From IMG/VR virus record IMGVR_UViG_3300025679_000005: 64,000 nucleotides of DNA; one strand, given 5' to 3'. The notes under the pieces were generated by a model. That model made no database searches, was not told the origin of the DNA, and saw only the letters and a program-made list of their open reading frames with translations. This document shows positions 1-4,144 of the stretch, piece by piece. The first letter of the stretch is position 1. Each line of letters opens with the position of its first letter. The translations under genes were made by a program, and so were the position numbers. The DNA comes from a virus (taxonomy: Duplodnaviria; Caudoviricetes).

Positions 1-2
1 CC

Positions 3-605
3 CAAGTCCCGGAGAATTTGATCTCGTTCCATATCGTAGTGGCGAGTGGCCCTGTTGTGCCATCCGGGACGATCCAACTCGATGATCAGCTTTCTGTCGG
101 GGAAGAAAAAATCGGTTACAAAGGACCTGTCGTCAAGCTCGATGACATGTTGGTGAATGAAACTCACTCCGAGAAGCCCCAAAGCTTCAACCACGGCCAG
201 TTCAGTCTTGGGAAAAGCCAGTGCTTTTCCGGATGCATAGAGACGTGCCGCTGCTTTACTCAATCGAGTCCGACCACCTTCAGTGTACTGGTATGGCTTG
301 ATCACGATCCTCTTACTGAAACCGAATCGTCTACCAAGATAATGACAGGTGGGGGAGCAAAAATTCCCGCCATGCTTACTCTTGATGTGGGAAACATGAC
401 GGGTGAAATCCGTCCTGCAAACATCACAGGAGAGGCTGACTTTGGTCTGTTTCTCTTGCCCCCTAAGAATGTAGGAGCACTTCCTGGAGCAGGTAGTTTG
501 TTTTCCCTTGTCCAAGTACTTTTGGGCAGCGAGGTAGGCGATCAAACAGACCGGACAGACTCGTTCGACATTTCTATCCCAGCCGTTGTTTTGGGTCGGT
601 TCCAT
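3..605 (-). CDS. Zn-ribbon + DUF559/Vsr-like endonuclease, 3' end runs off the window; antisense inside the methyltransferase ORF
   Basis: Manual translation from ATG at 605 (minus): MEPTQNNGWDRNVERVCPVC...CSRKC...CDVC...FCSPTC...FIHQHVIELDDRSFVTDFFFPDRKLIIELDRPGWHNRATRHYDMERDQILRDLG. Absent from the ORF track because its stop lies outside the window. Confidence 0.8.
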   Translation of the reverse strand, partial: MEPTQNNGWDRNVERVCPVCLIAYLAAQKYLDKGKQTTCSRKCSYILRGQEKQTKVSLSCDVCRTDFTRHVSHIKSKHGGNFCSPTCHYLGRRFGFSKRIVIKPYQYTEGGRTRLSKAAARLYASGKALAFPKTELAVVEALGLLGVSFIHQHVIELDDRSFVTDFFFPDRKLIIELDRPGWHNRATRHYDMERDQILRDL

Positions 606-2480
606 TCTCCCAGAGTTGCTCAAAAGGACTTTATGAATAAGGGATGGGAGATTCCTAGTGTCTCCGTCTGGAAAGAGGTCTACCGCATACTCAAGCCAGG
701 GGCTTATGTCCTCTGCTTCGGGGGGACCCGAACCTTCGACCTCATTTCAATGGGGCTCCGAGCCGCAGGGTTCGAGAACCGCGACACGATCGCTCATGAG
801 TTCGGCGTTCCTGTTCTTCAGTGGGTCCAAGGGATGGGGATGCCCAAGAGCAGTAACCCAGGTAAGGTTGTCAAGAAAAAGATAGGTTCGTGGGTTGGTT
901 CGCGAGAACCTACTGATGAACACACAGTAGTAAATGCATACTGTACGTGTCTCAAAGAAACTAGAATGGACTCCGGAATTGGAGGTTCTGTTGGGGACAA
1001 TCTCCGATATGCAGCTAGCAGTTCAGATGGGGCTGCCCAGAACGTCGAGTTCAGAGAATCGCGTACGCCATCATCGACGCACGCTAGGTATAACAGCTCA
1101 CAGAACGAAGCTACATGTAGTGATAGTGTGCCTGACTTGCGGGAAAAAGGCCCGCAAGAGGATGAAAGAGATCCGCAAGAACAAGAAAAACTACTGTTCA
1201 CACCCGTGTGCATCGATGGGGCAGAAGACTCGGGATTCAGAGAGTCTGCGCTACGGGCGAGGGTGGAAAGCTCTGAAGGCTCTGGTGTTACAGCGGGACA
1301 AAGCTTGTCGATGCTGCAAACAGATCCCAAAAAGGACTCTTCACGTGCATCACTTGAAACCGTTCCGATTCGGGGGGACCAACAATTTGGAGAACTTGGT
1401 AGCTCTGTGCGATTCGTGTCATCACAAGATAGAGGCGGCAACGACCAGAATTTTGAGTTCGATACAGGTCGTTGTCACTCTAGAAGAATCTTGCTTGACG
1501 ATACAGGTAGATGGGGTCATGCGAGGGCAAGAGTCTGTTCCTGGTGTGGCTCCTTAGACAAGTCCTTTTACGATAGCCTAGAGAATCTTGGCAGTGCACT
1601 GAAGCCTGCTTGGGAGCCGATTCTGGTCTTTCGCAAGCCGGTAGAAAAGACCCTCGTGGAGAATGTGCTCAAGTACGGGACCGGGGGGATCAACATTGAT
1701 GCTACCCGAGTCAAGCACGCCAGCAAAGACGACTTCGAGAAGCACAAGGCACAGGTTGAGGCCGTCAAAGCCAAAGGCGGTGTCCGAGGAGATTCCTGGA
1801 AGAACTCCTCAGACCTCTCAGGAGCTAACGATGTGCAGGAAGGGGGTAGGTGGCCTGCCAACATCTTGCTCACGCATTCTGAGGGCTGCCAGCACAGCGG
1901 AACCACCAAGGTTAAGGCTCACCCCGCTTGGAACGACAACCGCCCACCATCTGCTTTTACCGGCCCAGAGACCTCTCCGGTGCACCATGCTGAAGAGGAT
2001 GGAACCGAAACCGTGGAAGTTTGGAACTGTGTAGAAGGTTGTCCTGTCCTGGCCTTGGAAACCCAAACCGGGCTCCTCAAGAGCGGGCCCCTGAATCAAG
2101 GAGGAGCCTCCAGGTTTTTCCAGCAGTTCGAAGGCCAAGAACTACCCGAGGCCCCGTTCTTTTACACAGCCAAGCCGTCTAAGAACGAGACGACGTTAGG
2201 CGGGCGCATAGAGAACGAACATCCGACGAAGAAGCCTATTGCTCTCATGAAGTGGCTCATTCGATTGGTCACACGAAAGGGGGGACTCACCATTGATCCC
2301 TACTGCGGGTCCGGGTCCACTCTCCACGCAGCCATCGAAGAAGGCGTCAACTTCACGGGAATTGAGAGGGACGAGCCCTCCTACAAGACCTCGGTGGAGC
2401 GTGTCACACTTGTAGCGAAATTGTACGAGGAAGCCCATGTCCAACGAGACCTCTTTGACCTTGCGATGTCGAATGACTGA
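18..2480 (+). CDS. N4/N6 DNA methyltransferase (beta-type), 5' part outside window, with two large in-frame inserts
   Basis: WKEVYRILKPGAYVLCFGGTRTF, GMPKS, ALKPAWEPILVFRKP, HPTKKPIALMKWLIRLVT, DPYCGSGST (SAM-binding motif I). Catalytic DPPY motif not seen, presumably upstream. Confidence 0.85.
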   Translation: MISFHIVVASGPVVPSGTIQLDDQLSVGEEKIGYKGPVVKLDDMLVNETHSEKPQSFNHGQFSLGKSQCFSGCIETCRCFTQSSPTTFSVLVWLDHDPLTETESSTKIMTGGGAKIPAMLTLDVGNMTGEIRPANITGEADFGLFLLPPKNVGALPGAGSLFSLVQVLLGSEVGDQTDRTDSFDISIPAVVLGRFHSPRVAQKDFMNKGWEIPSVSVWKEVYRILKPGAYVLCFGGTRTFDLISMGLRAAGFENRDTIAHEFGVPVLQWVQGMGMPKSSNPGKVVKKKIGSWVGSREPTDEHTVVNAYCTCLKETRMDSGIGGSVGDNLRYAASSSDGAAQNVEFRESRTPSSTHARYNSSQNEATCSDSVPDLREKGPQEDERDPQEQEKLLFTPVCIDGAEDSGFRESALRARVESSEGSGVTAGQSLSMLQTDPKKDSSRASLETVPIRGDQQFGELGSSVRFVSSQDRGGNDQNFEFDTGRCHSRRILLDDTGRWGHARARVCSWCGSLDKSFYDSLENLGSALKPAWEPILVFRKPVEKTLVENVLKYGTGGINIDATRVKHASKDDFEKHKAQVEAVKAKGGVRGDSWKNSSDLSGANDVQEGGRWPANILLTHSEGCQHSGTTKVKAHPAWNDNRPPSAFTGPETSPVHHAEEDGTETVEVWNCVEGCPVLALETQTGLLKSGPLNQGGASRFFQQFEGQELPEAPFFYTAKPSKNETTLGGRIENEHPTKKPIALMKWLIRLVTRKGGLTIDPYCGSGSTLHAAIEEGVNFTGIERDEPSYKTSVERVTLVAKLYEEAHVQRDLFDLAMSND
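934..1557 (+). CDS. HNH endonuclease nested in an alternative frame of the methyltransferase
   Basis: CRCC..LHVHHLKPFRFGGTNNLENLVALCDSCHHKIE; N-terminal CxxC Zn ribbon. Confidence 0.85.
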   Translation: MHTVRVSKKLEWTPELEVLLGTISDMQLAVQMGLPRTSSSENRVRHHRRTLGITAHRTKLHVVIVCLTCGKKARKRMKEIRKNKKNYCSHPCASMGQKTRDSESLRYGRGWKALKALVLQRDKACRCCKQIPKRTLHVHHLKPFRFGGTNNLENLVALCDSCHHKIEAATTRILSSIQVVVTLEESCLTIQVDGVMRGQESVPGVAP

Positions 2481-2999: not shown

Positions 3000-3440
3000 A
3001 TGTCCTCTACCCCTGCCGCAAGAGTGACCATACGTTATGCGGCGGCCCGGCCAATGAAGCCGGAGAAGATGCAGGCCCTTCTCCTCAAGCTCCGGAAGGG
3101 TGCTGAGGGCAGCTTGCGAATGCCAGAGCTGGTGCAGGTCCTGGACTATCTAGGGGGCTACAAGCTCGAAGAGGCCTTGGTGCTTCAGAGTCAGGAACCT
3201 TACAAGGGTGCCAAGAAGGCTTTCTCTGGATCTCTGGCTCAGGTCAAGGCTGAGTGGGAAGAGATCAAGGCCAATGAGGTCAGCACTCTGCCGACTCATC
3301 CAGTGCTGCACAAGGTGTACTATCAGGATGTCGACCCTATCGTGGAAAAGGGTGACGGCACAGCTTACTTCAGAGCACCTTTCGTCCAGCCATTGTGCTC
3401 ACGGAGTCTGCGCTCTGGTTCTGTCGTGACGCCCGTGTAG
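3000..3440 (+). CDS. hypothetical protein; C-terminus overlaps an antisense GIY-YIG fragment
   Basis: 146-aa ORF; AARVTIRY N-terminal motif resembles the ORF at 9035. Confidence 0.6.
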   Translation: MSSTPAARVTIRYAAARPMKPEKMQALLLKLRKGAEGSLRMPELVQVLDYLGGYKLEEALVLQSQEPYKGAKKAFSGSLAQVKAEWEEIKANEVSTLPTHPVLHKVYYQDVDPIVEKGDGTAYFRAPFVQPLCSRSLRSGSVVTPV

Positions 3441-3520
3441 AGCAGCGTGGCATCGTTCGTGATGATGTAGACGAACCAGGCAGCATTCGTTATCTGAGGC
3501 AATACTTCACTTGTGCTCAT
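3365..3520 (-). pseudogene. truncated GIY-YIG nuclease (YhbQ/UPF0213-like), 51 aa
   Basis: Manual translation: MSTSEVLPQITNAAWFVYIITNDATLLYTGVTTEPERRLREHNGWTKGALK*. Confidence 0.65.
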
Positions 3521-3523
3521 TTA

Positions 3524-4144
3524 ATGGGTATGAGGCTGATAGATATTTCAGGACAGGTCTTTGGACGGTTGACAGTCATTAGGAAGTCTGAAGCACCCTC
3601 CATGTGGGAGTGTCTTTGTTCTTGCGGCACAACCAAGTTATTCACAGGTCCTAATTTGCGCACTGGAAATACCACTTCGTGTGGTTGCTTGCATAGAGAA
3701 AAGTTAGCGGCCTCCAACACAAGTCTGAAGTCCCTCGTGGAGCCATGGCTTGCAGACATGAACCTCTATGTTCGCAAGGTAGGCTATCGTCGGCAGCGAG
3801 GGAAGTTAGGTTCCAATCAATTTGCCTCTGTGGAAGGTAGCCCAGTATCTACTCACCCCTCCAATCATTGGGCACTAGACTTAGAGGCCTACACTAGTTT
3901 GGTGACTGGTATTTGTCATTATTGTGGGAGACCTCCTAATCAATTGCCCAAAGGTGCAAACATGAACCCCAGCTTAAGACGTAATGGCATCGACCGTATG
4001 GACAATACCAGGGGGTATGAACCGGACAATTGTGTATCGTGCTGTGCTTCGTGCAACAGAGAAAAAAGAGCACAGACCTTTGAAGTGTTCGTTGAAAATA
4101 CTAAGCGGCGCTACGAGCACCTAAAGACCAAAGGCTTGCTATAA
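3524..4144 (+). CDS. HNH-like homing endonuclease
   Basis: GQVFGRLTVI..WECLCSCG..LRTGNTTSCGC; CHYCG..NGIDRMDNTRGYEPDNCVSCCASCNREK. Confidence 0.85.
   Translation: MGMRLIDISGQVFGRLTVIRKSEAPSMWECLCSCGTTKLFTGPNLRTGNTTSCGCLHREKLAASNTSLKSLVEPWLADMNLYVRKVGYRRQRGKLGSNQFASVEGSPVSTHPSNHWALDLEAYTSLVTGICHYCGRPPNQLPKGANMNPSLRRNGIDRMDNTRGYEPDNCVSCCASCNREKRAQTFEVFVENTKRRYEHLKTKGLL

Follow-up and report, generated by a model that had tools for sequence, protein, structure and literature searches.

The window analysed here, a stretch of 64,000 nucleotides, belongs to a virus of the Caudoviricetes (Duplodnaviria; IMG/VR record IMGVR_UViG_3300025679_000005) and corresponds to the minus strand, G000:C1 46137-110136, of a source record of 155,231 bp with a guanine plus cytosine (GC) content of 54%. 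Its first part is occupied by a gene for an N6/N4 DNA methyltransferase (MTase) which carries two inserts, and the subject of this report is the first of them (insert 1), whose opposite strand encodes a nuclease. Insert 1 is probably a homing-endonuclease gene consisting of its open reading frame (ORF) only, placed antisense to the host gene and in register with its codons, which would persist there as a tolerated loop, presumably translated as part of the MTase. The preliminary description of this DNA, made from the letters of the window alone, had put forward a similar picture of a mobile nuclease inserted into a tolerant MTase loop while the host frame was kept open, most of which holds.

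The methyltransferase gene and the nuclease gene within it

The + frame of the MTase enters the window at base 3 and is free of stop codons to position 2480, as had been described. According to the genome record this frame begins at an upstream ATG at window position -246, comprises 908 stop-free codons in total and runs uninterrupted through both inserts. The retrieval of the upstream sequence, which had been recommended as a check, revealed a normal PF01555 N-terminus in the same frame, with motif IV (DVPY, residues 30-33) lying upstream of the window, and located the stop codon of the nuclease at -84..-82. The outcome named beforehand as a refutation, an upstream sequence lacking the start of an MTase in this frame, was thus not obtained. 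The features of the gene are as follows.

-246..2480 (in-window part 1..2480; G000:C1:107657-110383, minus strand), + strand: host N6/N4 DNA methyltransferase ORF, PF01555 match with E 9e-25
623 (TTG) or 605 (ATG) to stop at -84..-82 (in-window part 1..623; G000:C1:109514/109532-110221), - strand: antisense nuclease ORF of insert 1, 235 or 229 aa
606..629, - strand: short leader belonging to insert 1, which covers 8 host codons (SPRVAQKD region) and separates the nuclease ATG from FMNKGW
630..884, + strand: middle extein (FMNKGW ... VLKPG ... GMPKS), from the alignment with the insert-free MTases of phages 9NA, Mel-JY01 and Oogway
934-1557 (insert region ~885-1559), + strand: insert 2, HNH endonuclease ORF of 207 aa, PF01844 match with E 5.5e-8
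1560..2480, + strand: C-terminal extein (ALKPAWEP, GRWPAN, GGASRFF, HPTKKP and motif I, DPYCGSGST)

Insert 1 corresponds to MTase residues 55-291, i.e. 237 codons or ~711 nt, of which 230 codons are the antisense ORF. Beyond this ORF the insert contains just ~21 nt (seven codons of leader); it is essentially one ORF. The length of the insert is divisible by three, and hence the host frame continues downstream, with codon boundaries common to both frames: reverse-complementing the nuclease stop codon gives host Leu55, and the nuclease ATG gives host His284 in the same way. The + translation of the antisense stretch, which had been noted to end just before the family motif FMNKGW, stops 8 codons short of it. 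The nuclease gene had also been called complete; the ORF is indeed full-length, but it is not wholly contained in the window, since its last 28 codons and the stop codon are upstream of base 1.

The insertion site was defined by an alignment of the insert-free MTases of Salmonella phage 9NA (gp61), Microcystis phage Mel-JY01 and mycobacteriophage Oogway (gp58) with occupied relatives, the comparison with insert-free homologues having been another of the recommended checks. In this alignment insert 1 is found between the helix following DPPYGLSxxEP..YLQG and the FMGKxW motif, and the DPPY-to-FMGK spacing is 24-29 residues in empty alleles and 251-291 in occupied ones, in agreement with the earlier proposal of an insertion into a tolerant loop after DPPY. 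The exact site is defined by a pair of sister sequences (support 100), the empty P0044 (GADL-VTG-DFMGK) and the occupied P0014 (GAEL-(insert)-KDFMGK). The junction HxP...K(D/G)FMG is conserved among the occupied alleles, while the empty ones read G(D/E/G)FMGK. Insert 1 is, in other words, an ORF-sized insertion at a conserved site, missing from close homologues.

On both sides of the two inserts, all of the family-invariant MTase residues are present in the alignment. The protein has the features of a beta-class N6/N4 MTase (PF01555), including an N-terminal motif IV, a C-terminal motif I, the profile match and the fold. In the AlphaFold2 (AF2) model, the three extein pieces form the core of a beta-class methyltransferase with a pLDDT score (predicted local distance difference test) of 85-97, and this core (model residues 1..896) resembles CcrM (6pbd, Z 23.8), M.MboIIA (Z 22.7) and M.RsrI (Z 20.6). 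A fold search with the whole 908-residue model, which is insensitive to a small domain within an insert, listed methyltransferases alone. Judged by its motifs and its model, the host methyltransferase looks intact and is presumably active.

The assignment of the product of the - strand to Zn-ribbon/DUF559 nucleases was confirmed by a match to Pfam DUF559 (PF04480) at 22.4 bits, the curated cut-off being 20.6. Two zinc-ribbon repeats (CPxC...TCSRKCSY and CxxC...FCSxxCHY) are followed by a C-terminal Vsr/DUF559 domain. The latter, in an AF2 model of the nuclease with a pLDDT of 81, superimposes on the catalytic domain of I-Bth0305I (3r3p) with a TM-score of 0.69-0.71 and a root mean square deviation of 3.1-3.2 over 95-98 columns; further fold matches include the DUF559 protein 3hrl, PvuRts1I/AbaSI (including 4oq2) and Vsr (1vsr). 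The catalytic pattern D...ExD...H is present, in the form xDFxFP...IELD...H, in six aligned close homologues, with D165, E176 and D178 invariant in A5. The close homologues were found in metagenomes; they are six in number, share 49-63% identity with the nuclease and likewise carry PF04480, the closest of them being P0003 (61% identity), which was outside the host-frame check. A tblastn search of the nuclease against 50,697 phage records gave no match at 1e-3, and a more distant Vsr-type relative, L030, did match mycobacteriophage genes.

Codon-position divergence in the nuclease frame was computed on six copies, namely that of the window and five of the six close homologues. It is highest at third positions (0.46-0.58), followed by first (0.27-0.44) and second positions (0.13-0.37), indicating that amino-acid selection acts on the nuclease frame, and the nuclease is evidently a real gene under selection. 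In P0009-P0011 the zinc-ribbon module of the nuclease is joined to HNH domains, an exchange of modules that homing endonucleases typically show.

Selection on the open host frame

In the in-register antisense arrangement, stop codons in the host frame arise solely from the nuclease codons TTA, CTA and TCA. These make up 2.46% of the codons of the source genome, which gives a probability of 0.003 for a frame staying open over 235 codons. The preliminary estimate, a naive (61/64)^200 of about 1e-4, was based on the wrong null for this register and has to be replaced by the value of 0.003 derived from codon usage or by that from sliding windows, in which the in-register antisense frame is open in 29 of 1213 cases (~2.4%). 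Among genes of at least 180 codons this frame is fully open in 1 of 96, and shadow ORFs of 140-414 codons are common in the source genome. The open frame of a single copy is only suggestive.

The decisive evidence on this question comes from further copies, which were sampled in searches that started from the nuclease and took no account of the host frame. Such searches identified copies on six metagenome contigs (two of them near-identical) and 33 IMG/VR loci. The nested set, composed of 19 IMG/VR loci, the metagenome copies and the window copy, was reduced to 19 lineages less than 80% identical to one another. Each of the 19 has its nuclease gene antisense and in register within one and the same loop, that from DPPY to FMGKxW, and an open host frame. 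These lineages span 36-70% GC and several PF01555 methylase subfamilies, and their third positions differ at ~50% of sites.

The codons which would create a host-frame stop are completely absent from the nested nucleases: none of 351 leucines is encoded by TTA or CTA and none of 271 serines by TCA (0/622 altogether). In ten distinct relatives which are not nested in register, the same codons account for 29 of 138 leucines and 27 of 159 serines (56/297). The difference is highly significant (Fisher's test, p ~7e-30), with the reservation that the nested copies share ancestry and their codon counts are not fully independent. The case of L029 is instructive owing to its low GC content (36%). Its nuclease has no forbidden codon at 46 positions (22 Leu, 24 Ser), whereas the exteins of the same gene use TTA or CTA for 16 of 29 leucines and TCA for 5 of 25 serines, and the expectation for such an outcome is ~3e-11. 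In the window gene itself, the forbidden codons occur 10 times in the HNH ORF, 7 times in the exteins and 0 times in the antisense nuclease.

A metagenome contig with a GC content of 54% (L013:4716-5414) has an internal stop in the nuclease frame, at a zinc-ribbon cysteine codon, and an MTase frame which is open over 785 codons; in this contig the nuclease is apparently degenerating, and the host frame is nonetheless kept up. In addition, a profile-free search of 1.8 billion representatives yielded at least 16 additional cluster representatives in which one protein had been called across the insert; this sample is biased towards open frames, but indicates the wide spread of occupied alleles. 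Taken as a comparison of sequences, the evidence for selection keeping the host frame open may be regarded as decisive, and the earlier claim to this effect is upheld by the contrast between nested and not-nested copies rather than by the window copy.

Proposed mechanism and alternative explanations

According to the explanation which we consider probable, insert 1 would occupy a surface loop between motif IV (DPPY/DVPY) and FMGKxW of a phage beta-class MTase. Selection removes TTA, CTA and TCA from the nuclease, and this implies the passage of ribosomes through the insert in the MTase frame. The MTase would thus be made as one polypeptide with an extra loop of ~237 residues, no RNA or protein splicing being involved; the MTase of the window would also carry a second extra stretch of ~225 residues, derived from the ShiLan-type HNH insert described below. 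The nuclease would be made from an antisense transcript and would cut insert-free MTase alleles in co-infecting phages, whereupon repair would copy the element in (homing). Translation through the insert, antisense expression of the nuclease, its cleavage target and the activity of the MTase are all matters that we infer.

The mobility of the element, already suspected in the preliminary description, is in line with the homing-endonuclease fold and with the distribution of the insert. On an extein tree, the rows of which were chosen by the analyst, the insert pattern needs 7 gains or losses, at least 3 of which are forced by well-supported branches, and such a patchy distribution fits a mobile element.

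Several observations, besides the shared ancestry of the nested copies, weigh against this explanation. The open frame of the window copy alone could have arisen by chance with a probability of 0.3-2.4%, which is not compelling. Motif IV of the window MTase is DVPY instead of DPPY, its second proline being replaced by valine (as is also the case in L011 and L016). The avoidance of stops could serve other ends, for example avoiding polarity on downstream genes. Related nucleases in L022, L036, L039, L049 and mycobacteriophage Willsammy split or abut the MTase gene, and read-through is hence not the sole outcome for this nuclease family. On the side of expression, a search of sequencing runs with window positions 1-2480 and 1-1700 listed no RNA run and one DNA run, from a peat metagenome, which is probably where the sequence comes from. 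A promoter/terminator scan over 3.6 kb found sites to be no commoner than in shuffled sequence and placed none for the nuclease, and the GGGAGA run located directly at the nuclease ATG is almost spacerless, which is atypical for a Shine-Dalgarno sequence.

Read on the nuclease strand, the conserved host codons DFMG give CCCATAAAGTC, situated ~25-30 nt upstream of the nuclease ATG and bearing a weak likeness to a -10 box. It is located within window positions 600-640, and at the equivalent place in L011, L013, L014 and L016. That the flank of the target site might supply the nuclease promoter is only an idea.

The host-frame peptide could have a function of its own, so that ~700 nt of insert 1 would be functional on both strands and the peptide would be a folded, useful, beta-rich domain of the MTase. 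AF2 assigns about ten beta strands to the host-frame insert 1 (residues 55-291 of P0001), with a pLDDT of 27-79 and parts reaching 70-79, while insert 2 in the host frame is modelled as unstructured (pLDDT 25-35). The strands of insert 1 may only reflect covariation imposed by the nuclease frame. A second coding function of this kind seems unlikely, and so does a nested restriction-modification-like pair of nuclease and methylase, in which methylation would protect against the nested nuclease.

It is also quite unlikely that the MTase is dead or fragmentary, with a restart at the methionine of FMNKGW and an open frame that is a mere by-product of low antisense stop density. The in-register antisense frame does contain only 2.5% stops in the source genome, where shadow ORFs abound, an AAGGA motif is found 4 nt upstream of the FMNKGW ATG, and related nucleases split MTase genes in L022, L049 and Willsammy. 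Nevertheless, both the 19 open lineages out of 19, including the genome of 36% GC with its expectation of ~3e-11, and the contrast with relatives not nested in register are beyond chance. On either side of each insert the catalytic and family motifs are all preserved, and a fragment starting from FMNKGW would be without the catalytic DPPY. A split gene would moreover tolerate or even need stops, and in place of the stops and restarts of genes fractured by a free-standing endonuclease, a single frame of 908 codons is observed.

An intein of unusual architecture, in which the host-frame peptide would splice itself out and the endonuclease would be encoded on the antisense strand, must be considered as well, because an open host frame is exactly what inteins require. 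Antisense Vsr-like endonucleases inside full inteins have been described (bioRxiv 10.1101/2025.01.02.630785), inteins are known from this MTase family (canonical ones occur at WxYG|SGFPKS in P0043, P0068 and L020), and parts of the host-frame insert are predicted by AF2 with moderate confidence as beta strands. With 230 of 237 codons belonging to the antisense ORF, however, no room is left for ~130-150 residues of splicing blocks. Hint/intein Pfam families were absent at E<=10 from the host-frame peptides of 7 divergent copies, and a PDB search with a profile of 13 host-frame inserts yielded no intein. No Cys/Ser is conserved at residue 1 and there is no TxxH block, and the end of the insert reads RFH-S/H/T-P or LQNP instead of HN followed by Cys/Ser/Thr. 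The codon-position divergence, too, puts amino-acid selection on the nuclease frame, not on the host frame. An intein is thus very unlikely, and this identity was rejected on the Pfam and PDB profile negatives and the junction residues.

The removal of insert 1 at the RNA level, as a group I/II intron or an unknown ribozyme with an antisense endonuclease gene and an incidentally open frame, is the least probable alternative: group I introns are common carriers of phage homing endonucleases, the closest solved fold, that of I-Bth0305I, is encoded in an intron and related phages contain introns (PMC3706429), but only ~21 nt are available outside the ORF, Rfam matched no family over 6 kb around the gene at E<=1, and splicing before translation would leave no selection on host-frame stops, yet 19 lineages (one of 36% GC) have none. 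The intron identity was accordingly rejected on the Rfam negative and the scant non-ORF sequence. Selection against host-frame stops speaks as much against a dead or fragmented host gene as against RNA splicing. The preliminary statement that neither an intron nor an intein is involved agrees with the ~21 nt outside the ORF and with the negative Rfam, Pfam and PDB profile searches.

Insert 2, related loci and known systems

Insert 2 is the published ShiLan element. Its frame is offset from that of the MTase by one base, and its position is between the MTase cysteines CxC and CSWC, which is where mycobacteriophages Violet (gp57) and Lamina13 (gp61/62) have their annotated out-of-frame HNH; the nucleotide identity is 79% over 96 nt. 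The MTase frame is open through insert 2 as well, the chance of which is ~2e-5 (0 of 1428 windows open). At least 7 HNH matches are present in the source genome, which is rich in homing endonuclease genes. At window positions 3365-3520 (- strand), a GIY-YIG-like fragment of 51 codons overlaps the start of an HNH-like ORF of 249 codons (3395-4144, + strand).

Other arrangements were encountered among the related loci. In Mycobacterium phage Willsammy (NC_051727.1; L057:2381-3169, gp52-gp55), an unannotated antisense zinc-ribbon/DUF559 nuclease splits the MTase into gp52 and gp54-55, and the "hypothetical protein" gp53 looks like a host-strand shadow. The split site is a different one, between AKAPxxERP and HPTVKP, and the host gene is fractured, not read through. 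L022 (843-2300) and L023 (GC 37%) contain a relative of HNH type that shares the zinc-ribbon module and sits antisense between a duplicated N-terminal MTase fragment and an MTase with a stop at the DPPY tyrosine (DPP*). An open host frame has not been preserved there. In the IMG/VR loci L036, L039 and L049, relatives of the Vsr type adjoin or overlap MTase N-termini; a 20-codon N-terminal fragment is duplicated in L039, and both L036 and L039 show a change of frame between DPPY and FMGK. The uncultured 484-kb phage LR756508.1 (L020:7-5334) encodes four tandem MTase paralogues, the first with a canonical intein at WVYG|SGFPK. The MTases P0043 and P0068 have an antisense-nuclease insert and a canonical intein together, which means that the MTase family can carry several selfish inserts at once.

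Gosselin et al. 2023 (PMC9957025) reported three kinds of insert in this methylase family, namely an intein, a LAGLIDADG domain in frame with its host and the domain called ShiLan. ShiLan was described as an out-of-frame HNH within a stop-free host frame in which intron and intein features are absent (Arsenault, Gosselin and Gogarten 2025, PMC11855218), and an antisense or Vsr/DUF559 case is contained in neither of the two papers. Insert 1 is similar to ShiLan in its methylase host, its ORF-like size, the stop-free host frame, the lack of an intron/intein signature, the patchy, homing-like distribution and the presumed translation of the host through the element. It differs in that ShiLan is an HNH in a shifted frame of the sense strand, whereas insert 1 is antisense, in exact codon register and encodes zinc ribbons with a Vsr/DUF559 domain; its site, the DPPY-FMGK loop, is also not that of ShiLan.

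Gosselin et al. (bioRxiv 10.1101/2025.01.02.630785) reported antisense Vsr-like endonucleases that are located within full inteins in other genes. Common to them and insert 1 are the antisense EDxHD-type endonuclease, a sense frame that must stay open and the occurrence in phage genes. In those inteins, which reside in DNA polymerase, minor capsid, terminase and thymidylate synthase genes, splicing domains surround the endonuclease; insert 1 has a methylase as host, and a Hint domain was not detected in it and would have no room. With I-Bth0305I and the EDxHD family (3r3p), the nuclease of insert 1 shares the C-terminal fold, a modular N-terminal DNA-binding region and the occurrence in phages. 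I-Bth0305I resides in a group I intron, while the nuclease of insert 1 is in none and has a double zinc-ribbon N-terminal module.

Host genes may also be fractured by free-standing homing endonuclease genes, as nrdA of phage Aeh1 is by mobE. These endonucleases resemble insert 1 in having no intron or intein of their own and in lying inside a conserved host gene. In their case, however, the host is cut into ORFs with stops and restarts, whereas the frame around insert 1 is continuous and stop-creating codons are avoided. According to the citation of Dassa et al. 2009 in 10.1101/2025.01.02.630785, Vsr-like genes between the halves of split inteins are likewise free-standing endonuclease genes which fracture the host. 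Insert 1 combines two known designs, the antisense Vsr-like nuclease and the intein-free read-through in a methylase, and our literature search found no description of an antisense Vsr-like nuclease without an intein in a methylase.

Homing endonuclease genes are thought to owe their survival in essential or useful genes to introns that splice themselves out, or to inteins. A third route, that of being translated through, was suggested by the ShiLan reports of 2023-2025, and insert 1 would extend this strategy to the opposite strand and to a nuclease of the Vsr/DUF559 type, with at least 19 lineages covering 36-70% GC. The in-register antisense orientation is favoured because it needs the fewest codon restrictions. 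Three sense codons are avoided completely, and this quantitative signature could serve in searches for further elements of the kind. This would also be of relevance for annotation, given that gene callers either overlook the nuclease or break up the methylase, and enter the host-strand shadow as a hypothetical protein, gp53 of Willsammy looking like such a case. With at least four kinds of mobile insert (intein, in-frame LAGLIDADG, out-of-frame HNH and antisense Vsr-like nuclease) hosted by one phage methylase family, the latter would be a good system for studying the competition of selfish elements.

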